Below are positions 54,021-64,000 of a stretch of DNA of 64,000 nt, piece by piece (the stretch's first letter is position 1; each line of letters begins with the position of its first letter). Where the stretch lies: NCBI GenBank assembly GCA_036679605.1, contig JAZDCZ010000324.1:101375-165374 (forward strand), written 5' to 3'. The DNA comes from Gemmatimonadota bacterium (lineage in GTDB: Bacteria; Gemmatimonadota; Gemmatimonadetes; Gemmatimonadales; GWC2-71-9). The notes below the pieces were generated by a model. The model was given only the letters and a program-made list of their open reading frames with translations. It ran no database searches and was not told the origin of the DNA. The position numbers and the translations under genes are program-made.

Positions 54021-55552
54021 GTACGACCGTTCTCATATCAATGGACGATCTCGAAGCGGCGGTTCGCGCAAACGCCCAACTCGAGGAAGTCGGTTTTGAC
54101 ACAGTGCTGGTGTCGTCGGTGGATGACGTCTCGGGTGTGTTACGGAAATCGGAACCCGACGTAGTGGTCTTGACCGGCGCCCTTCAGGAGCACACCGCAA
54201 AAAAACTGATTGGTCTAGCGCGCGATCGTTCGATCTCGACCCTCGGTCTTATTGAGGCGCCGATAACAGATCCCGAAACTTTGGCTGGGCGTTTGGGTCT
54301 CACAGCCTGGCTCATGAAGCCTGTTGATGCATCCGAAGTCGCAGCAGTTACTCAACGACTTGTCGAGCGGAGAAGGTTGCAGCGGCGTACCGGAATTTCT
54401 GGAGAGAGTCCGGCGATTCAAGAAGTGCTTGTGAAGATCGAGCAGATGGCTCCGGTCAAGAGCAACGTGCTCGTGGAAGGCGAATCGGGCACCGGGAAGG
54501 AACTCGTTGCCCACGCGATTCATGACCTCTCGCCGCGGAGGGACGGACCGTTTATCGCTGTTAGCTGCGCAGCGCTTCCTGAAACGCTACTGGAGTCGGA
54601 GTTGTTTGGACACGAGAAGGGTGCATTTACAGGTGCAGCGGAGCGCAGACTAGGGCGGTTCGAGCTAGCACATGGTGGCACACTCTTCTTGGATGAAGTC
54701 GGCGAAATGCCAGTTGCAACGCAGGTTAAACTGCTTCGAGTACTGGAGAATCATGCATTCTTCAGAGTAGGCGGTACCGACTCGATACGAGTTGACGTAC
54801 GTGTGGTTGCCGCCACGAACCGCTCTCTCAAGGAGTTGGTGGCGCTACGGCAATTCCGCGATGACCTGTATTACAGGCTGAATGTGCTGTCGATTTACCT
54901 CCCGCCCCTAAGGGAACGAAAATCCGATATTCGCATTCTAGTCAAACGCTTCGTAGAAGAGCTTAGCGAGGAGCACGGTAGATCGTTCTCCGGAATTTCT
55001 CCTGAGGCAATGGAAGTTCTGGTAAATGCGGACTGGCCCGGCAATATCCGGCAACTCAGAAACCTCATCGATTCCATGGTTGTGCTCGCACACGGCAGGG
55101 AAGTTCGTGCCAGTGATATCCCGACGGATATTCGAGAGGGTGGCTCGAGATTGCTACCGGTGCACCTTCCGCATCAAGCGGTGGACGTTCAAGGCAAAGA
55201 ATTGGAATTCATATTCCGAACCCTCGTGGAGTTGAAGCTACAGGTGGAAGACTTGCGTCGGCGCATGGATGACGTTCCTCAGCGCGTGGAAGTCATCGAC
55301 GTGGGTCGTGTTGCTCCGGCGGAGTATGAAGAGCTAACCCGTGACACCAGTGAGTCGTCCGATGAAACGGAGCCAAAGGACGATGATACCCAGGTCGTCT
55401 ATCGCCCCGGAATGAACATGGCGGAAGTCGAACGCGCTGCGATCAATGCAGCCTTACGGGAAACTGGTGGCAACAGACGTCGCGCAGCAGAAAAACTCGG
55501 CATTGGCGAACGCACGCTTTATAGAAAAATCAAGGACTATCGGCTGGTCTGA
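54017..55552 (+). CDS. Sigma54 enhancer-binding protein with a degenerate receiver domain
   Basis: [22 protein letters not shown] and HTH; the receiver reads PDVVVLT at the phospho-Asp position. Confidence 0.88.
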
Positions 55553-57303
55553 GGAATTCCGACCAGTTCGGTCAACTCGAAGTTCAGTTGAATGATGTCG
55601 CCGGCGCCCAGCTGAGTCGTGGTGGCGACGCCGGACCACCCGGGCAGCCTAACCTGCACCGTTACCACTTGCCTTTGTGGCACCCCGCAAGCGGCGTAGT
55701 AGCCGGCCCAGTCAGACATCGCCCAAATCTCCACAAGCTTACCCGGAGCTTTGCGAGTACCGGGGAGTCGTGCGGACAGCGTTATTTCTGCCTCTCTGAG
55801 CGCCTTGCCGCTTGCAGCGTCGCGAACGAATCCGGACACCATACCCACGCTGTCAGCTATCGTGGACGATGGGCACAATCGCGACCAAACAGCACGTGCC
55901 GATGGTATGGCGATTCCAACCGTCGCAGTACGCCCCAATTCGAGAGTGGCCTTTTGCCTGGGAGGTACAAAGCCAAGACTGTCGAGAAATTCGCGGGGGA
56001 AAGATATCTCGTAAGTGTCTTCAGCTAGTCCATGCAGAAAGAAGCGCCCGCTACTATCGGTGCGCGCCCGGTATCCAGTTCCTAACAGAATGACAGTTAC
56101 ACCGGCCAACGGTTCTGCGGTTTCCATATCGACGACTTTGCCGATCAGAGATGTTGCCAAACCACGTTGGAGCAATGTGCCGTCGAGTGCATGAATCTCG
56201 CTGACCCAACCACCCATTTCCTTTACCGCCGCGAGGTAGGGCTCGGAAGTAAGGTCGCTGAATTTGGTCTGTCGAACTCCAATAACCGGCATCCGAATCC
56301 ACCACTTGCGGACCATCCAAGGGCCGTCAGGCAATCGTTCGAACTCGACACGCCCGCCTACGTGCTCCGACTGGGTTCCCCGTGGAACGCCGGTGTAGCG
56401 GTACTCGAGGTACTGTAATCGAGCCGATTCCTGGTCGAGCCAGAGAACTCCTTCGATGTCCGGCACCTTCCGTCCCCTGATGGGCTTGAACGCCAACCCA
56501 ATCAATCTGGCGTCTTCGTGTCTCTGTACCGAGAAGCAGTGTAGGTTCGCGAATTCGTTCGACAACAGAACGGTCGCGTCCGGTCCGTAGTAGTAGTACT
56601 CGTGTTTGCCGGTCTGCTTGATAAAGCCGGCGGCGGCCAATTCATCAGCCGGTAGAGTACGAAACGGACTCGCCCGATACATCCCCGACTGCGACCAGCG
56701 CAGACTGTCCTGGGATCTCAGCGAATGTGGGTCCAGCAGTCGCTGGTACTGAACCAATCGATGACGCAGAGTCCCTTGCTCCTCGGTCCACGCTACGGCG
56801 TCCAGAGCTTTCTGCGCTTCCTCCCACAGCGTCAGCGCTGCGATGCTCGCCTCCCGGCGCGTTCGGCAGGCCTTATCTCCTCGGATAACGAGAGTTGGGA
56901 GTGTTATTGAGATCGCTGGAATTACGAAGGTGAACTCCACGGTCTCGTCGACGGCAACATCGATGGGCTCGGAGATCTTGCTCTTTACGCCAATTACTGC
57001 GGACCTCAATCGGTACCGGCCCGCGCCGGGTGCCTCCAGGGTGAATCGTCCTCGGGGATCCGTCAGCGTTCTCGTATGCTGCAGCGAACTATTGCCCAAC
57101 AGGATCACGAATCCACCAGATATCGGGCTGCCCGTTATCTCATCGACTAGTGTCCCACTTATGGTCTGAGAAAACAGCGGACCTGCGACGAAAAACATCG
57201 CCAGCAGTGCGCTGAGGCTGACGGCCGCCATTGAGGAGGCTGGAAGCCGGATCGGTACGGTTGTTACGGTCCTCTTCTCGTCCACACCGCTATGACGCCG
57301 CAA
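55537..57303 (-). CDS. Secreted protein with several CarboxypepD_reg-like domains
   Basis: Signal peptide; three G.V.D..G.P/A...T/SD..G.F/Y repeats. True start may be ATG 57231. Confidence 0.7.
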   Translation of the reverse strand: MRRHSGVDEKRTVTTVPIRLPASSMAAVSLSALLAMFFVAGPLFSQTISGTLVDEITGSPISGGFVILLGNSSLQHTRTLTDPRGRFTLEAPGAGRYRLRSAVIGVKSKISEPIDVAVDETVEFTFVIPAISITLPTLVIRGDKACRTRREASIAALTLWEEAQKALDAVAWTEEQGTLRHRLVQYQRLLDPHSLRSQDSLRWSQSGMYRASPFRTLPADELAAAGFIKQTGKHEYYYYGPDATVLLSNEFANLHCFSVQRHEDARLIGLAFKPIRGRKVPDIEGVLWLDQESARLQYLEYRYTGVPRGTQSEHVGGRVEFERLPDGPWMVRKWWIRMPVIGVRQTKFSDLTSEPYLAAVKEMGGWVSEIHALDGTLLQRGLATSLIGKVVDMETAEPLAGVTVILLGTGYRARTDSSGRFFLHGLAEDTYEISFPREFLDSLGFVPPRQKATLELGRTATVGIAIPSARAVWSRLCPSSTIADSVGMVSGFVRDAASGKALREAEITLSARLPGTRKAPGKLVEIWAMSDWAGYYAACGVPQRQVVTVQVRLPGWSGVATTTQLGAGDIIQLNFELTELVGIPQTSR

Positions 57304-58049
57304 CCCGAGTCCATGTCGCTGAATTCAATGGGGACCTCCGACGGCCTGTATATTTCGATTCCCTCGAGATCGTGGGGGAAAAGCTCCCGATCCATACCCT
57401 CGAAGGTGTCGACTGACCCCCACTTCGCGTTGTCTACCCAGAGGCTTGGCGGGCAAGGGCTCCCCTTGATTCGAACGGTCCACCCGGCTCCCTGCTGGGG
57501 CGATCGGACAATCCGCACGCCTGCGACCAACCTAAGTAGGCTTGTAATCTGGGTGGAGGCCCGTTCTTCAATGTCCTTCCGGGTCACGAAGTGTCCCATC
57601 CCCTTCTCGACCCGGTCGTAAAAACCTCGCAATGGTCCCGGTGCATAGGGTGCAGAATCTGCAGTAACTACGACTGCCGGTAGTTCTGTGAAGGTCCATA
57701 GTTGCAGCTTGAACTGCAGACTCTGCCCCTTTTTGATTATGAAGGGGAGCGCGTTCAGAGTGTTGTATCCCTGAGCGTCGACTCGGAAACTGTAGGTGCC
57801 GGGGCTGGGTGTACGGATCGAATAGAATCCGGCAGAATCGGCGATCCCGATGCGCTTGACCTGCCCATCCTTGCTCAGGAGCACGAGAGAGGCGTCCGGA
57901 ACTGGAGCCCCGCTTGCATGATCTACTACTTGGCCCCTCACCGTCTGTGCCACTGCGGGGTGGGTCTGGATCCCGGTGAAGGTCAGCACGGCCAGAAAAG
58001 CGGCCATGGTGGCCCTAGGGTCGACATGCGAATTGATCGGTAGTCTCAT
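57264..58049 (-). CDS. Secreted CarboxypepD_reg + TonB-plug-like protein without a barrel
   Basis: Signal peptide, VRGQVVD, LPAVVVTA, GFYDR...GHFVTR..IE, LEGIEIY, CGVIAVWTR; only 261 aa. Confidence 0.72.
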   Translation of the reverse strand: MRLPINSHVDPRATMAAFLAVLTFTGIQTHPAVAQTVRGQVVDHASGAPVPDASLVLLSKDGQVKRIGIADSAGFYSIRTPSPGTYSFRVDAQGYNTLNALPFIIKKGQSLQFKLQLWTFTELPAVVVTADSAPYAPGPLRGFYDRVEKGMGHFVTRKDIEERASTQITSLLRLVAGVRIVRSPQQGAGWTVRIKGSPCPPSLWVDNAKWGSVDTFEGMDRELFPHDLEGIEIYRPSEVPIEFSDMDSGCGVIAVWTRRGP

Positions 58050-58263
58050 CTGCGTTGGATCCTCAAGAGGGCGCCTAGAAGGTTGTCACACCGGACCTGG
58101 CCGGTCAAATCACTGGCTCAGCGGTGAATCTATATTAAATCCCCGGTGAAGCAGCTTTGTTTCACCTCCCCGTAGATCTGGATCAGCCTGAACCCAGTCT
58201 CCCCGGGGGGAGTGTGTTAGCGGTCCCACACCTGGGCATGAACCTCTAGTAGTTTCTCAAAAG

Positions 58264-58340
58264 AGTGATGTAAGTCACTGACATTTAGTGTGTTGAAGCA
58301 CTTTCAGCTATTGACAATCGGCCCTGAATAAGGCTATAGT
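58264..58340 (+). promoter_or_regulatory. Sigma70 promoter with an upstream CRP/FNR-like palindrome
   Basis: AGTGA-N6-TCACT at 58264-58279; TTGACA (58311)-N18-TATAGT (58335). Confidence 0.55.
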
Positions 58341-58417
58341 AGGGGTCCGTTTAGCCCAACTAAGGATACCTAAACAATACACCTCGGTCGCCGGGGCCCA
58401 GGCTGGCACATGGATCA

Positions 58418-60136
58418 GTGCGGTTTGAGATAAACCCCGAAAAATGCGTGAGTTGCCTGGCCTGTGTGAGGGTGTGCGCGGTTCAGGCAATTGCGGTCGA
58501 TGGGCCAAACGTGCGGATCGTGGACGATGTGTGCATTCGCTCAGGAACCTGCTTGCCCGAGTGCCCTCACGACGCGATCGATGCAATTGGTGACCTAGAC
58601 CGGGCCCTGGCGCTGGCCGGGGGTGGCGAGGCGGTCTTGATCCTGGCGGTGGAATCGGCGGTCCACTTCTACCCCCAGACGCCCGAGCAGCTCGTAAACG
58701 CCTGCTACCGTGCGGGGTTCAAGGTGGTTCACCGTGGTGTGCTGGGCGATGAGCTGGTGGCGGAGGAGTACCAGAGGCTGTGGGCGGATCCCCATTGGGG
58801 GACGATGATTCGCTCGACATGCCCTGTAGTGGTGGAGCGGATTCGCACCGATTATCCGGAGTTGGTGCCCTTCCTGGCTCCGGTCCAGACGCCGCTGGCG
58901 GCCGAGGCGTTGTACCACCGGGCGCTATATGGGGAGGAAGTGCCGCTGGTCTACGCCGGTGTCTGTCTGGCCGAGGCCGAAGGTCAGCTGGACGCGACGC
59001 TGACCTTCGAGGAGCTGGAGGAATTACTGGGGCGCTGTGGGGTGGACGTGTCGGCGGAGCCCTCGTATTACGAGCGGATTCCCGAGGTTCGGGAGCGATG
59101 CTTGAGTGCGGCGGGGGGGTTACCGCTCGACCTGTTGGAGAGTGAGCATCAGGCGAGCCGGCGATTTCGCAAAGTGCGGGGGCTAGGGGGGTTGGGGGCG
59201 ATCTCACGGGCTGTGGGAGTGCACCGGATGGACCTGGGGTTCGTTGACATCCTGCCGTGTGAGGGGTGTCTCGCCCACCCGTTGATGGGTCCGCCTGAGG
59301 AGTTGTTCTGGCGCCGTAGCGTGGTGAACGACACGGAGCCGAAGCGGTGTGATACTCCGGTAACGGATTCTGGGGTGAGTGTCCAGATCGAGCGGGCGTT
59401 CCCGTTCATCCGCAACGGGCACAAGCCGAGGGCCGCCGAGTTGAAGGGAGTGTTGGAGACCATCGGCCGTGCTCCGGACGGCTCGCCGTGGGACTGCGGG
59501 GCCTGTGGATATGGCACGTGTGACGGTTTCGCTGCGGCGCTGCTGCAGGGCCGGTCCACACTGAGGCAGTGTACGCCCTATCAGGAGCGGCGCGCCGATG
59601 AGGCGGTGCGGTCGGCGGCAGTGGACGAACTGACCGGCCTAGCGACGTTTCGCATGCTGCGCTCGCGGCTGGAACAGGAAGTGGCCCGCAGCGATCGTAG
59701 TGGCGAGGAGTTCTGGGTGATCTTTGTGGACCTTGATGAATTCAAGGGCGTCAACGACGTGCATGGGCACGACGCGGGCAACAGGGTGCTGGAGGGAGTC
59801 GGTGCGATAATGCTGCACAGCGTCCGCAAGACTGACATGGCGGCCCGCTACGGCGGCGACGAATTTGTGCTGGTATTGGTGAGGACCGATGTGGAGGGTG
59901 CGCGACGAGTGGGCGAGGTAGTGCGGGAGTCGGTCGAGGCTTTGGGAGTGGCACAGGGGTTGGAAGTTGGAGAGATCGGCGCTTCGATCGGTGTAGCCTG
60001 TCACGATCCTAACGCCGAGAAGTTAGCAGACGCGTTGCGGGAGGCGGACAGAGCCATGTACCGGGCCAAGGAATTGGGTGGCAATGTGGTGGTGTTGGCG
60101 GGAGACAGAAAAGCGAATGGAAACGAGGAGCGATGA
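58418..60136 (+). CDS. Fe-S / [FeFe]-hydrogenase-like sensor fused to a diguanylate cyclase
   Basis: CVSCLACVRVC and CIRSGTCLPEC; H-domain-like RSTCP, GVC and PCEGC; DCGACGYGTC...C; DELTGL, DLDEFK.VND..GH..G, RKTD I-site, RYGGDEF. Confidence 0.85.
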   Translation: MRFEINPEKCVSCLACVRVCAVQAIAVDGPNVRIVDDVCIRSGTCLPECPHDAIDAIGDLDRALALAGGGEAVLILAVESAVHFYPQTPEQLVNACYRAGFKVVHRGVLGDELVAEEYQRLWADPHWGTMIRSTCPVVVERIRTDYPELVPFLAPVQTPLAAEALYHRALYGEEVPLVYAGVCLAEAEGQLDATLTFEELEELLGRCGVDVSAEPSYYERIPEVRERCLSAAGGLPLDLLESEHQASRRFRKVRGLGGLGAISRAVGVHRMDLGFVDILPCEGCLAHPLMGPPEELFWRRSVVNDTEPKRCDTPVTDSGVSVQIERAFPFIRNGHKPRAAELKGVLETIGRAPDGSPWDCGACGYGTCDGFAAALLQGRSTLRQCTPYQERRADEAVRSAAVDELTGLATFRMLRSRLEQEVARSDRSGEEFWVIFVDLDEFKGVNDVHGHDAGNRVLEGVGAIMLHSVRKTDMAARYGGDEFVLVLVRTDVEGARRVGEVVRESVEALGVAQGLEVGEIGASIGVACHDPNAEKLADALREADRAMYRAKELGGNVVVLAGDRKANGNEER

Positions 60137-60873
60137 GTTCTACAAAGCCAGAACCGAAGCCTGAGCCGCCCAGACCGGCGGCGAGTCGGTCCGAGGAGGA
60201 AGTTCGGAAGCCGGACCCTTGGGGGGTCAAGCGGGCTGAGAATCTGCTCCAGAGTCTGCAAGGGATACTCTCGGCGCGGGTTGTGGTCTCGCCCATCGGT
60301 GAGATAATCGAGGTGCATGTGCTCGCGAGTAGCGGCGGCGCGCCCAAGCAGGTGGTTCGCAACGTAGAGAGCGCTTTGTTGGCTCACCTCGGCATAAAGG
60401 TCGACCATCGCAAGATCAGTGTTGCACAGACGGCCGACGTCAAGCCGATAGAGGCGTTGGAGAAGGCGGCAGTGCAGCAAGCGGCGATGCGGCGCGGCGT
60501 CGTGTATCGGAAGTTGGAGCGGATTCCCGTTGGTGAACACCGCATTCGATTTGCGGTCACACTCGAGGTGAACGGACAGGATGTAGTGGCGGAGGAGGAA
60601 TCCGCCGACACCTCTCGAGCGCGCATGCAGGCTGTTGCGCGTGCAGCGGTGACTGCGCTGGACGATTCCTTGCCGACCGGCGTGTTCGAGTTAGAGGGTA
60701 TCAAGGTGATCGAGGCGTTTGACGAGGAACTCGTGGTGGCCGGGGTTCATGTGATCGAGGGTCGTCACACTCGTCTCCTGACGGGTACGGCGCCGGCGGA
60801 AGAATCGGCCGAGCAGGCGGCGGTGTTGGCGGTGCTGGACGCCACGAACAGATGGTTCCAGTCGCGCCAGTAG
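60133..60873 (+). CDS. Conserved-looking soluble hypothetical protein
   Basis: ATGA overlap with the cyclase; motifs EVHVL...PKQVVRNVESAL...DHRKISVAQ and C-terminal AVLDATNR. Confidence 0.8.
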   Translation: MSSTKPEPKPEPPRPAASRSEEEVRKPDPWGVKRAENLLQSLQGILSARVVVSPIGEIIEVHVLASSGGAPKQVVRNVESALLAHLGIKVDHRKISVAQTADVKPIEALEKAAVQQAAMRRGVVYRKLERIPVGEHRIRFAVTLEVNGQDVVAEEESADTSRARMQAVARAAVTALDDSLPTGVFELEGIKVIEAFDEELVVAGVHVIEGRHTRLLTGTAPAEESAEQAAVLAVLDATNRWFQSRQ

Positions 60874-60898
60874 CGGCGCACAGTAATTAGATAATTTC

Positions 60899-60927
60899 GG
60901 CCCCGTCCACACGGTGGGTGGGGTTTT
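60899..60927 (+). terminator. Probable intrinsic terminator
   Basis: GGCCCCGTCCAC-ACG-GTGGGTGGGGTT (with G-U pairs) ending in TTTT. Confidence 0.6.
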
Positions 60928-61126
60928 GGTTCGATAGCAGTGAACCAGAGAAGATTGTAAGCCAACAACAGAACCTAAGGAGAAAAGGGGGTGCCCCGAA
61001 CGGTGACCTAGCCAAGACGCAAGCGGAGTGAATCGGTCAGTAGTTAAGAGCGGAGCCTCGGGCATACCATAGCGAGGGATGCCACTTTCCACGCGGCGCA
61101 AGCCGCCCGAGAGGGGGTGACGCAAC

Positions 61127-61195
61127 ATGCTAGACTCGTTCATTATTTTTTGTGAGAAGCTTTTGGCGTTATCAGCCTGGCAGAGCTGGGGTTAA
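61127..61195 (+). CDS. Small 22-aa peptide MLDSFIIFCEKLLALSAWQSWG
   Basis: Strong SD GAGGGGGTGA at 61111-61120, 6 nt before the ATG; TAA at 61193-61195; below the ORF-track cutoff. Confidence 0.7.
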   Translation: MLDSFIIFCEKLLALSAWQSWG

Positions 61196-61229
61196 GTCAT
61201 AACGTGGGGCATCCCCCCCAACACTTTCG

Positions 61230-62582
61230 GTGCTCAAGCAAATTTCTAAACGTGGCGCGCTTTCGGTTAACTCCTACGTTTTCCTGGTAGCGGCGATTGG
61301 GATACTTGCATTCATTGTGGCACTCAGCGTAGATCCTTCCGTCTCAGCGAACGAAGCCGTATCTGTCACGGCAGTGCTAGCCTTCTTGGCCATCGCTCTC
61401 GGACTCCAGTTGGCTGAGCATCGACTTGCTGTTGGGAAGGCGACTGGATCTATAGCGTTCATCGTTTACTTAGCGTCTGCCCTCGTCTTCGGCGCTGTTT
61501 GGTGTGCAGTCATTACTGCAGTTACTGTTGGGAGCGCCCACGCTCTTAATCGCAAAACTCCTATCAAGATCGTTTTCAACGTATCCCAACATGTGATCGC
61601 ACTCATTGCTGGCACATCGGTTTACGTGCTGCTTGGCGGTACAATACCTCTGCAATCCCTGGATTCTGCTATCATCCCCTTCTTTGGGTTTGTCGTCACT
61701 TCATTTTCGATCAACAGTACTGCCGTGAGTGGTGTCATAGCAGTTAGCGAGGGCAAGCGGTTTGCCGAAGTCTGGCTGCGCAATACCTGGGCACTTGCAG
61801 GATACGATCTTGTTGCCAGTGCGCTCGGCCTTGGCGTTGCGTGGCTATACGTTCAGTTTGGCTTTGGCGGAATCGCAGGTGTAGTCATTCCGATTCTGTT
61901 TCTTCGGCACACATTCTTGATCAACCTCCAGTTGCAGAATACAAACCGTGAACTACTTGATCTTATGGTGAAAGCGATTGAAGCACGAGATCCGTACACA
62001 AGTGGTCATTCACAAAGGGTGGCTGAATTGGCCAGGATCTTGGGGCGCGAGCTAGGCCTTGGTTTTAAGGAAGTCGAGAGGATAGCGACCGCCGCGCTCT
62101 TGCACGATGTGGGCAAGATCTATGAGGAGTTTGCGCCGCTGCTTCGAAAGGAAGGAAAGCTGACAGAACAGGAGAGCTTTGTGATGCAATCTCATCCTGC
62201 CCGAAGTGCAGAACTAGTTGGCACCATTTCCAATTTGAGGGGCGTGGTAGAAGGTTGTGTACGTCACCACCATGAGAATTACGATGGTTCGGGGTACCCC
62301 GGAGGTTTGGCAGGAGAAGATATACCCCTTGGCTCACGTATCATCATGATTGCCGATACGACCGATGCAATGACTACCGATCGTCCGTATCGAAAAGCTC
62401 TCTCGTACAAACGAGTTCAGGAAGAGCTAGACGAATGCTCTGGGAAACAGTTTGATCCGAAGCTGGTACGTGTGTTCGGTCACAGTGCTGCGGTCCGTGC
62501 GATAATGGACGAAAGGGGTAGCCAACAACCGCTGCCTTGGAGATCGGCCAAGCAGTCGCTGCGTCTACGGGCAGTAAAGTAA
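61230..62582 (+). CDS. Membrane-anchored HD-GYP cyclic-dinucleotide phosphodiesterase
   Basis: About 6-7 N-terminal TMs; EARDPYTSGHS, LHDVGK, HHENYDGSGYP, IAD..DAMTTDRPYR, QFDP. Start uncertain because there is no clear SD. Confidence 0.9.
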   Translation: MLKQISKRGALSVNSYVFLVAAIGILAFIVALSVDPSVSANEAVSVTAVLAFLAIALGLQLAEHRLAVGKATGSIAFIVYLASALVFGAVWCAVITAVTVGSAHALNRKTPIKIVFNVSQHVIALIAGTSVYVLLGGTIPLQSLDSAIIPFFGFVVTSFSINSTAVSGVIAVSEGKRFAEVWLRNTWALAGYDLVASALGLGVAWLYVQFGFGGIAGVVIPILFLRHTFLINLQLQNTNRELLDLMVKAIEARDPYTSGHSQRVAELARILGRELGLGFKEVERIATAALLHDVGKIYEEFAPLLRKEGKLTEQESFVMQSHPARSAELVGTISNLRGVVEGCVRHHHENYDGSGYPGGLAGEDIPLGSRIIMIADTTDAMTTDRPYRKALSYKRVQEELDECSGKQFDPKLVRVFGHSAAVRAIMDERGSQQPLPWRSAKQSLRLRAVK

Positions 62583-62592
62583 AGCTACGTGC

Positions 62593-64000
62593 TCACGGTG
62601 GAGGCACCCCAAGGGTGCGGAGACGGCGTATGACGCCGTGCAGTCCCATATCCCTCAGCTCGTGAAATGGCGACAGGCTTGCTGTTTTATTGTCCGGTCT
62701 CTCCCTTGCCGCCCATTCTTCGAATGCGAGAACTTCGAGTCGGTCACTGATCTGAATACACCGCTGTTTAAGGTTTCCCATCTCCGAAAGTCTTCGCATC
62801 GCGTCAAAACCGTGGCACCTCCACATGTGGTGGCGACTTAGCCGCTCATACCGACCCATGTCTGCCAACATATACATGCGCCCCTTGGTGTGGGCTTGTG
62901 CTACTTCGATCAATGGCCAAGCCAGTTCTGGCCGAGCGCAAGCGATATGGAGATCAGATTCGGCAAGCAGAACATCCGTATACAGCCACCAGAGTTGAGA
63001 AGCCTCAGCGCGTAGTTTGGCGATATCAATGCATTGCCTCGCACCAGACATGTCATCGATCACCATACTTAGGCTGGCCATATTCAGGTTTGCTTCGACT
63101 GCCCGGCGAGGATTGGACGCGATGTTTTCCTGAGACAGAGCGGTGCGATAGCAATTCTCTGCGGTATCGAACTTTCCGATGTCTTCATATACTGCTCCGA
63201 GATTGCCCCATCCGTTTGCAACGGCGACAGAGTCTCCAATCCGTGTCGCTATGTTGATGGATCTGTGAAAAGCCTCGATGCCTTTTTCAAATGCACCAGT
63301 GCAAGTGTATGCCAGACCAATCCCGTTCAAAGCCTGTCGTATATTTGGGTCCAACGACAGTGGTTCAAGTATCGTGAGGCACCTCCTGAAATGGGCAACC
63401 GCAGAGCTTGCTTCGCCAGCTACTAGCGAGCAGTACCCTTGTGTCAAGAGTGCACTGGCTCTTATTGATGGATCGCTTGCAGCGTTCTCGATGCTCGCCG
63501 CTTTGACCCGAACGACGTTCACGTCAGTCCAATCGCCCCTCTCCGATGCCACTTCTGCTCGGACCTGCAGGGAACGCATGGCGATCGACTCGTCGTCACA
63601 CTCCTCAACGAATTCTGACGCAAGAGAAGACGCCCTCATGATCTGATCGTCGTCGGCCAATCTTCCACGATGTAGAGCTTCAGCGCGAATAGTAGCTGCC
63701 AAGGCCTCGCCGCAATGAGTCGTCTTCGAGCACCTCCAATGTGCCAACGCTCTCAGCGATTCCTGATAACGACCTCTCGCGTTCAGGGCCTCTGCCATGA
63801 GGAGGTAGAGTGGCTGTGACTTATCCTCGGGGCATCTCTCCATCACTACCTGCAGCGCCCGCTCTGCCTCCTTAGGTGCTCCTCTCCTGACAGCGAGATC
63901 AGCACCAGCGCACACGGCTGTCACGGCATCATCGATCATTCTCGCTTTCGCGAAATGGTGTGAAGCCTCGAGGGCTCGCTGAAAGTCATCGGCTTCGCGA
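62593..64000 (-). CDS. TPR-rich protein, C-terminal part of a larger gene
   Basis: Frame stays open to the window edge (READDFQRALEASHHFAKARM...); TPR-like repeats ALNGIGLAY, GWGNLGAVY, ANLNMAS. Confidence 0.75.
   Translation of the reverse strand, partial: READDFQRALEASHHFAKARMIDDAVTAVCAGADLAVRRGAPKEAERALQVVMERCPEDKSQPLYLLMAEALNARGRYQESLRALAHWRCSKTTHCGEALAATIRAEALHRGRLADDDQIMRASSLASEFVEECDDESIAMRSLQVRAEVASERGDWTDVNVVRVKAASIENAASDPSIRASALLTQGYCSLVAGEASSAVAHFRRCLTILEPLSLDPNIRQALNGIGLAYTCTGAFEKGIEAFHRSINIATRIGDSVAVANGWGNLGAVYEDIGKFDTAENCYRTALSQENIASNPRRAVEANLNMASLSMVIDDMSGARQCIDIAKLRAEASQLWWLYTDVLLAESDLHIACARPELAWPLIEVAQAHTKGRMYMLADMGRYERLSRHHMWRCHGFDAMRRLSEMGNLKQRCIQISDRLEVLAFEEWAARERPDNKTASLSPFHELRDMGLHGVIRRLRTLGVPPP

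Follow-up and report, generated by a model that had tools for sequence, protein, structure and literature searches.

A conserved micro-peptide gene in front of a membrane HD-GYP gene in Gemmatimonadota, and its possible role as a tryptophan-peptide input to MASE9

An open reading frame of only 22 codons is located shortly upstream of an HD-GYP gene in the 64,000 nt of Gemmatimonadota DNA that were analysed (the window). This raises the question whether so short an ORF is a gene and, if it is, what its product could do next to an enzyme of c-di-GMP turnover. The ORF extends from an ATG at 61127 to a TAA ending at 61195 (forward strand), and its translation, MLDSFIIFCEKLLALSAWQSWG, combines an amphipathic N-terminal helix with a C-terminal Trp core (..SAWQSWG). 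An extended Shine-Dalgarno (SD) sequence, GAGGGGGTGA, is found on the same strand at 61111-61120 with a spacing of 6 nt to the ATG, and 34 nt separate the TAA from the GTG start codon of the HD-GYP gene at 61230. This arrangement had been described in an earlier note on this DNA, and all of its coordinates could be confirmed. The same is true for the statement that the HD-GYP gene lacks a clear SD: none is present, and GTG 61230 is the sole in-frame ATG, GTG or TTG codon in 61196-61330.

Two of the checks suggested in that note, homology upstream of HD-GYP orthologs and dN/dS, speak for a gene. In the set L001-L072, the DNA in front of the orthologous HD-GYP gene is 160 nt or longer at 66 loci, and 63 of these carry an ORF of 12-35 codons behind an SD. 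The three exceptions differ from each other: in L070 the ORF is located further upstream, in L071 the SD is followed by an ORF of 41 codons, and L030 has neither leader nor peptide. As a background, a strong-SD ORF of 12-35 codons occurs upstream of 13 of the 2,791 long ORFs from the same genome, the micro-peptide locus included. Loci with the same type of membrane domain (MASE9, see below) were sampled across the phylum, leaving out L196 from the unpublished genome G183; 27 of 28 have an SD-led peptide ORF, and the 28th has a peptide with a weaker SD. When loci were collected via a 246-aa protein that is encoded upstream, the peptide ORF was found in 30 of 34, and two of the four misses were recovered on a wider look; the sets of 66, 34 and 28 loci overlap, and their members are kin rather than independent events. 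For dN/dS, 20 disjoint pairs of equal length were picked by HD-GYP similarity from 84 distinct peptides (L030, L035, L071 and L107 were excluded as wrong picks). The ratio is 0.27 in frame, as compared to 1.35, 2.29 and 1.25 in the other frames, and the 333 substitutions in the 20 peptide pairs are distributed 92/60/181 over the three codon positions. Because of this purifying selection in frame, and because of the conservation at 63 of 66 loci against a background of 13 in 2,791, we conclude that 61127-61195 is a real gene under amino-acid selection, with its translation being predicted.

Neither Pfam nor NCBIfam has a family for the micro-peptide, and its own genome has no paralogous peptide and no second close MASE9 domain. 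In the closest complete relative (L146) the peptide is MLDWIAILLGALAQLFSRSAWQSWG. The conserved part of the peptide family is the Trp end: a C-terminal Trp is present in 69 of 78 peptides, in a context like G-(T/G/N)-(V/Q/I)-(S/G/T)-W, and the Trp end is retained throughout a length range of 14-35 aa. The W-x-x-W-G end that had been pointed out earlier is found in the peptide from the window but is not a family motif, W-x-x-W(G) being clade-specific and restricted to 4 of the 78 peptides. That the peptide is hydrophobic/amphipathic had been seen correctly: the N-terminal part has a hydrophobic moment of 0.39 versus 0.29 for shuffled sequences, a value that was reached by none of 200 shuffles (78 peptides). 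The net charge is between -2 and +2, mostly -1 to +1 (78 peptides). Lys or Arg at residues 2-4 occurs in 9 of 84 peptides, so that a basic n-region is absent from most of them in this phylum. A Trp-sensing leader peptide, acting as an attenuator, had also been proposed. This is not supported: tandem Trp residues occur in 1 of 101 cases, a U-rich run follows the stop codon in 10 of 101, and the downstream gene codes for a phosphodiesterase.

This downstream gene (61230-62582, forward strand) codes for 450 aa, with a MASE9-type membrane domain (residues about 10-217) in front of an HD-GYP domain. All invariant residues of the HD, HP, HHE, GYP and DRPYR motifs are present, and the fold of the HD-GYP domain scores a Z of 24 to solved HD-GYP domains. 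As predicted from intact motifs and fold, the protein is a membrane HD-GYP phosphodiesterase that degrades c-di-GMP, and it is the proposed receptor for the peptide. Its membrane domain has no match to Pfam MASE9 (PF20972). Among the orthologous N-domains, 71 of 82 match MASE9 at E<=0.01, an orthologue with 46% identity passes the cut-off, and in Atlas the first matches to the window protein are MASE9 at 0.92. MASE9 is found in 43 of 81 genomes of this phylum; the tallies over 81 genomes (DUF5317, MASE9, leader model R1, 246-aa family) include the unpublished G183, and the conclusions are independent of this genome. MASE9 was defined by Galperin and Chou, and the available part of their account (10.1101/2021.11.05.467447) predicts binding within the membrane and names no ligand. 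In Streptomyces venezuelae, according to the available part of PMC6205966, hdgA mutants are without developmental phenotype and the authors suspect that an activating signal is missing.

The membrane domain model (pLDDT 92, eight predicted helices) has its best structural match in NikM (4m5c; Z 14.1, rmsd 3.6, 190 aligned), followed by a run of further ECF S-components at Z 9-13, with Z 12.5 for RibU (5kbw), and Foldseek concurs (probability 1.00 and TM-target 0.70 for RibU), although a Z of 12-14 is close to chance level for helical bundles. As modelled, MASE9 has the ligand-pocket fold of ECF S-components. In such proteins the binding site is built by helices 4-6 together with loop L1 (PMC4245157, available part), and in NikM the pocket is occupied by the protein's own short N-terminal loop (PMC3945884, available part). 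The N-terminus, loops L1, L3 and L5 and the C-terminus of the MASE9 model are rich in Lys and Arg, and the conserved polar residues S74, N117, N162, W182 and D193 are found on the same half. Because the positive-inside rule can be applied to these K/R-rich loops, the pocket seems to face the cytoplasm. This is the reverse of ECF transporters, the S-components of which have the opposite pocket orientation.

Peptides in front of MASE9-type enzymes also occur in Chloroflexota, Bacillota and Actinomycetota. These resemble signal peptides in that the n-region is basic, and their core is short. The C-termini are GGASFTWGGGG in Natranaerobius, PPGVSWT in Nonomuraea, and the Trp-free SGAFFCVR in Subdoligranulum. 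In other cases, MASE9 genes are preceded by subtilases with pentapeptide tail repeats (GISWE/GVTWD or LLTWD; L110, L111, L114, L115, L116, L134) or by secreted proteins with a predicted mature N-terminus of GVQW, GYDW, AVDW or RDIEW (L118, L122, L130, L135, L112; the cleavage sites of these five were judged by eye). The five secreted proteins have about 80-170 aa and carry Trp-Cys right after the predicted signal peptide. Upstream of MASE9-HD-GYP genes coding for ~700 aa, there are ORFs of 8 codons (MLSWNYSW, MLSWSFQW; L129, L131), which are possibly minimal precursors. For Chloroflexota, 25 MASE9 loci were surveyed, two of them with too little upstream DNA and a few being ambiguous. At peptide loci, DUF5317 follows MASE9 in all five Chloroflexota genomes tested but was found in none of the 81 genomes of the Gemmatimonadota set; because of this, the Gemmatimonadota version is, by its gene content, a distinct variant with an amphipathic leader and without DUF5317. 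The Nonomuraea locus (L109, NZ_LT559118.1) has a peptide of 34 codons in front of an hdgA/hdgB-like pair; this 11.85-Mb record is filed as a plasmid and has 10 annotated features.

Three unrelated precursor types thus give one motif beside one domain, which is our main argument for a reading to which we assign slightly better than even chances: the micro-peptide would be the precursor of a short Trp peptide which is read by MASE9 and tunes c-di-GMP breakdown. The amphipathic helix would carry the peptide to the membrane, and the C-terminal 5-7 residues, probably released by proteolysis, would enter the S-component-like pocket, filling it in the way in which the N-terminal loop of NikM fills the pocket of that protein. 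Occupancy of the pocket would then alter c-di-GMP hydrolysis by the HD-GYP domain. Since the pocket side appears to be cytoplasmic, the peptide would act from inside, being either made in the cytoplasm or exported and then re-imported. That the peptide acts on the HD-GYP sensor domain, as its ligand or as a membrane modulator, had been the preferred suggestion of the earlier note, and the gene context in four phyla as well as the modelled pocket fold of the sensor argue for it. Several points count against a Trp ligand. At L030 the enzyme is present while leader and peptide are absent from the locus, the C-terminal Trp is missing from 9 of 78 peptides, and the absence of DUF5317 from the 81 genomes is to be listed here as well, as are the rarity of a basic n-region in this phylum, the missing match of the window's own domain to PF20972 and the near-chance Z of the membrane fold. 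With neither DUF5317 nor, in most peptides, a basic n-region, the module offers no candidate exporter or protease. Furthermore, a pocket on the cytoplasmic side can be reconciled with secreted subtilases and secreted folded proteins only on the assumption that the core is released from them and then imported.

The peptide may instead remain unprocessed and serve, in the same cell and with no released signal, as a membrane-bound subunit or modulator of MASE9-HD-GYP that resembles MgrB or SafA. This we hold to be unlikely, though it deserves to be kept in mind. The amphipathic helix with its increased hydrophobic moment would suit such a modulator, as would the lack of a basic n-region in most peptides and of DUF5317 in this phylum, the cytoplasmic pocket side, and the strict adjacency of the peptide and enzyme genes. 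However, the peptides range in size between 14 and 35 aa and yet keep the Trp end, subtilase repeats and secreted proteins carry the same motif without a membrane helix, and there are versions of 8-9 codons before other MASE9 genes (L129, L131).

The SD of the micro-peptide gene is part of a structured leader which, like the 246-aa gene, was overlooked in the earlier account. The conserved leader core (61055-61123; all leader elements are on the forward strand) contains helix P1 (61055-61059 with 61119-61123), the covarying P2 hairpin (61061-61068 with 61076-61083), the consensus helix P3, in which an anti-SD (61084-61089) pairs with SD bases 61113-61118, and a variable hairpin (61093-61106); the last bases of the SD are in P1. 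A long-range helix, P0, closes the leader plus ORF by pairing of 60987-60998 with 61205-61216; 13 nt lie between its 3′ arm and the HD-GYP start codon, which has no SD. The region 60980-61225 folds better than all of 200 shuffles (z -3.7). In 41 aligned leaders (L215, on the wrong strand, was dropped) double changes are seen at 6 of the 8 P2 pairs. A U-A pair (19) in P3 switches to C-G (13) in step with the GGAGG/GGGGG variant, which was repeated on 39 leaders; several P1 and P3 pairs are invariant and hence uninformative. In 94 of 99 leaders, folding predicts a paired SD. Cognate P0 arms average -37.2 kcal/mol, whereas swapped partners give -29.4 and shuffled ones -27.4; the cognate arms are better than 90% of the swaps in 51 of 101 cases. 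The fold of the window's own locus pairs the leader into the coding start. We conclude that, by prediction, the SD is paired within a conserved covarying leader. The earlier view of a strong SD driving the ORF holds as far as GAGGGGGTGA is in place, but its predicted base-pairing points to a regulated site rather than a simply strong one.

Rfam gave no match for the leader, and c-di-GMP-I/II models gave 0 hits at E<=1 in 57900-62800. The c-di-GMP riboswitch model found none in the leaders of five relatives while L127 scored in the same test; a c-di-GMP-II riboswitch is present in leader position before the peptide in the Chloroflexota loci L124, L126, L127, L128 and L133. Our covariance model of the leader (R1) has a single match in the genome of the window and matches 35 of 81 genomes (32 of 38 in its own family) with one copy each except for G001. 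All strong R1 matches that could be placed are at the peptide/HD-GYP locus, and no leader regulon was found with R1 across the 81 genomes, where R1 misses the divergent leaders of other families. The same leader layout is visible by eye in two Bacillota loci. A terminator-like hairpin with a T run (60900-60931, forward strand) separates the 246-aa gene from the leader but is no general feature of the family. In 90 leaders, the DNA directly 5′ of P0 showed no conserved promoter. Contigs from run X1, the RNA status of which is guessed, cover scattered pieces including 60972-61110 and are not taken as evidence. Assemblies often break inside or beside the leader and peptide (G009, G166, G168, G182, G189, G001:C11), which lowers the apparent presence of the module.

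Two further explanations start from this folding. The ORF could be a cis-acting leader, its translation opening P0 and coupling to the SD-less HD-GYP gene, with the peptide itself being incidental. The SD-less start 13 nt past P0, the covariation in leader and P0, and the pairing of the leader into the coding start are consistent with this. It is nevertheless improbable, as there is purifying selection on the residues, an amphipathic pattern and a terminal Trp, the same motif is found in precursors that are long proteins, and attenuator features are absent. The other explanation, also raised in the earlier note, is a type I toxin, that is, a small membrane-damaging peptide silenced by mRNA folding and antisense RNA. 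SD/anti-SD pairing and a long-distance 5′-3′ helix are described as hallmarks of such mRNAs in the available part of PMC8594479. Both are predicted here, and the product is small and amphipathic. However, a terminator is absent after most ORFs (10 of 101 have a U-rich run in the 70 nt behind the stop codon), the window has no promoter-like site on the minus strand, the alignment has no conserved AT-rich element, and no antitoxin was matched in Rfam. In addition, the gene occurs as a single copy at a fixed signalling locus, and the net charge is confined to -2 to +2. We thus consider a toxin to be very improbable.

If the micro-peptide is the precursor of a MASE9 ligand, the leader would gate its synthesis, probably via the 246-aa protein acting on AGCG(G/A)A repeats, a position that would be taken by the c-di-GMP-II riboswitch in some Chloroflexota. 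Ribosomes that finish the peptide would open P0 and make the SD-less HD-GYP start accessible.

The 246-aa protein (60133-60873, forward strand) consists of a small alpha/beta N-domain and a C-domain that resembles the LeuA/CimA regulatory domain (Z 10.0, rmsd 3.1, 110 aligned). It has no Pfam or NCBIfam family, and no PDB sequence relative of the family was found. Its gene is found upstream at 56 of 72 loci, and the two Bacillota loci have it there as well. Within the leader, three AGCG(G/A)(A/G) repeats are found in 61022-61076 (at 61022, 61049 and 61071, forward strand), the last one in the P2 loop. Every one of the 101 leaders from this phylum has 1-4 copies of AGCG(G/A)A, and the two Bacillota leaders have 2-3; where the locus lacks the 246-aa gene, the motif occurs in 1 of 13 leaders. 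That one leader is from the only genome among five Chloroflexota tested that has pieces of the 246-aa family, and the co-occurrence amounts to about three lineages against two. Because the repeats track with the gene, they are candidate sites for the 246-aa protein, and we infer that it binds them and gates the SD; it perhaps responds to an amino acid. MFE folding does not clearly place the repeats in loops (unpaired 0.46 vs 0.40). They could also be a DNA site for the BTAD regulator described below (spacings of 10, 15 and 22 nt). A CsrA site was rejected, as the repeats do not fit the ANGGA consensus of CsrA.

The tie between the 246-aa protein and the peptide is not exclusive because homologues of the protein exist in G165, where two loci lack the peptide and MASE9 is absent. 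The 246-aa family has 2,027 clusters at E<=1e-10, many of which match one domain only. A shorter protein matching only the LeuA-regulatory-like half (G000:C334:42897-43313) occurs in the genome of the window and in most genomes of the family. In one subgroup (L243:859-1490 in G182, L008, L009, L012 and others), a gene that seems to code for an excisionase-type HTH plus a receiver domain is located between the 246-aa gene and the leader.

Further upstream, a gene that runs into the start of the 246-aa gene (58418-60136, forward strand) codes for a protein of 572 aa in which 4Fe-4S, Fe-hydrogenase large-subunit-like, FeS and GGDEF domains are fused; the same order is found in G013. This protein is likely a redox-sensing diguanylate cyclase opposite the phosphodiesterase. 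A TTGACA ... TATAGT-like promoter, read by eye at 58330-58370, precedes this gene and is a possible operon start. The genes at 55537-58049 (reverse strand) are transcribed away from the operon and code for two proteins that look secreted and contain carboxypeptidase-regulatory-like domains; one of the two also has a TonB plug domain. The genes flanking the peptide are those for the GGDEF, 246-aa, HD-GYP and TPR proteins, with no RiPP-modifying enzyme adjacent, and PADLOC on three neighbouring proteins gave HD cross-hits only.

The TPR protein is a convergently encoded regulator of ~1,100 aa with BTAD, AAA_16 and TPR domains; its TPR-rich C-terminal part (62593-64000, reverse strand) is cut by the end of contig C251. 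This regulator may serve as another reader of the peptide or act on the repeats as DNA. TPR domains of RRNPP regulators bind signal peptides, and the earlier note had considered a signalling precursor for this protein. In its strongest form, the peptide would be read mainly by this regulator, following the logic of RRNPP peptide-signalling systems (PMC7564271, available part), and MASE9 would be a co-regulated passenger. The regulator is indeed syntenic in this phylum (tblastn matches at 52 other loci; a long convergent ORF, mostly a BTAD/AAA/TPR regulator, in 63 of 69 loci), and BTAD/TPR genes also adjoin Chloroflexota loci. However, none is annotated or seen in the examined flanks of the Natranaerobius, Nonomuraea and Subdoligranulum loci, where peptide and MASE9-type enzyme co-occur, and its architecture is STAND/SARP-like, not that of a soluble HTH-TPR RRNPP receptor. 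We give this explanation little credence.

Losses of single components are mostly uninformative, as the loci in G009, G166, G168, G182 and G189 end at contig breaks. In G033 the peptide is kept while the MASE9 frame has stops, possibly due to assembly errors. The module is split in G206 (L248, L198): an SD-led ORF of 11 codons follows the 246-aa gene without an adjoining MASE9, whereas the MASE9 gene, at a distance of 13 kb and on the opposite strand, has a second peptide in front of it. The MASE9-less ORF is another point counted against a Trp ligand.

A wider generalization is possible, with the balance of probability somewhat against it. MASE9 would be an inward-facing, S-component-derived receptor through which short Trp peptides control c-di-GMP enzymes directly in several phyla, the peptides being supplied by interchangeable precursors (micro-gene, protease tail or N-terminus of a secreted protein), and in this phylum an RNA switch would be read by an amino-acid-sensing 246-aa protein.

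With known MASE9-HD-GYP proteins (PF20972; T. maritima TM1467, S. venezuelae HdgA) the enzyme has in common the fusion of a membrane N-domain to HD-GYP, and, judged by 71 of 82 orthologues, probably the family of this N-domain. The available parts of the published accounts (10.1101/2021.11.05.467447, PMC6205966) do not mention 'peptide' or 'small protein', and they are equally silent on the micro-peptide, an S-component fold, a leader RNA and the 246-aa gene. The pairing of a peptide with MASE9 was not found in the literature searched (titles and abstract starts; Figure S5 in the supplement of the MASE9 preprint may show gene context), nor was anything relevant on DUF5317 or on an S-component combined with HD-GYP. 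The conserved micro-peptide thus belongs to an undescribed module, with the mechanism outlined above being our proposal.

Similarities to other systems are partial. Judged from the available parts of PMC7564271 and PMC13220807, the export-reimport peptides of streptococci (SHP/Rgg, ComS/ComR) and Bacillus (Phr/PapR) have in common with it a tiny gene by the reader, a hydrophobic leader and a short C-terminal core, but here the reader would be an S-fold domain in the membrane, attached to a c-di-GMP enzyme, instead of a soluble RRNPP regulator, and the host is a diderm. NikM and CbiM (PMC3945884, PMC4245157, available parts) share the membrane fold with an extra N-terminal helix, and in NikM a pocket filled by a peptide loop; MASE9 differs in being fused to an enzyme, in its eight predicted helices, in the apparently cytoplasmic pocket side, and in a plug that would be encoded separately. 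Type I toxin-antitoxin mRNAs (PMC8594479, available part) resemble the module in the paired SD, the 5′-3′ helix and the small amphipathic product, while terminator and antisense evidence is absent here and a single copy is found in a fixed signalling context. What the peptide shares with MgrB and SafA is that it is small and hydrophobic and has a membrane sensor as its proposed target; the differences are that this target is a phosphodiesterase, and a motif that is interchangeable with protease tail repeats. MgrB and SafA are small-protein modulators of membrane sensors, and ComS carries a Trp motif.

For MASE9, an orphan sensor in the Streptomyces, Thermus and Thermotoga models, the micro-peptide provides a concrete candidate ligand that can be synthesised. 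The locus also yields an RNA leader without Rfam match and, with the 246-aa protein, a candidate new family of RNA-binding regulators. If the proposed reading is true, there would be a route of peptide signalling that bypasses histidine kinases and RRNPP and acts directly on c-di-GMP, including in a diderm phylum.
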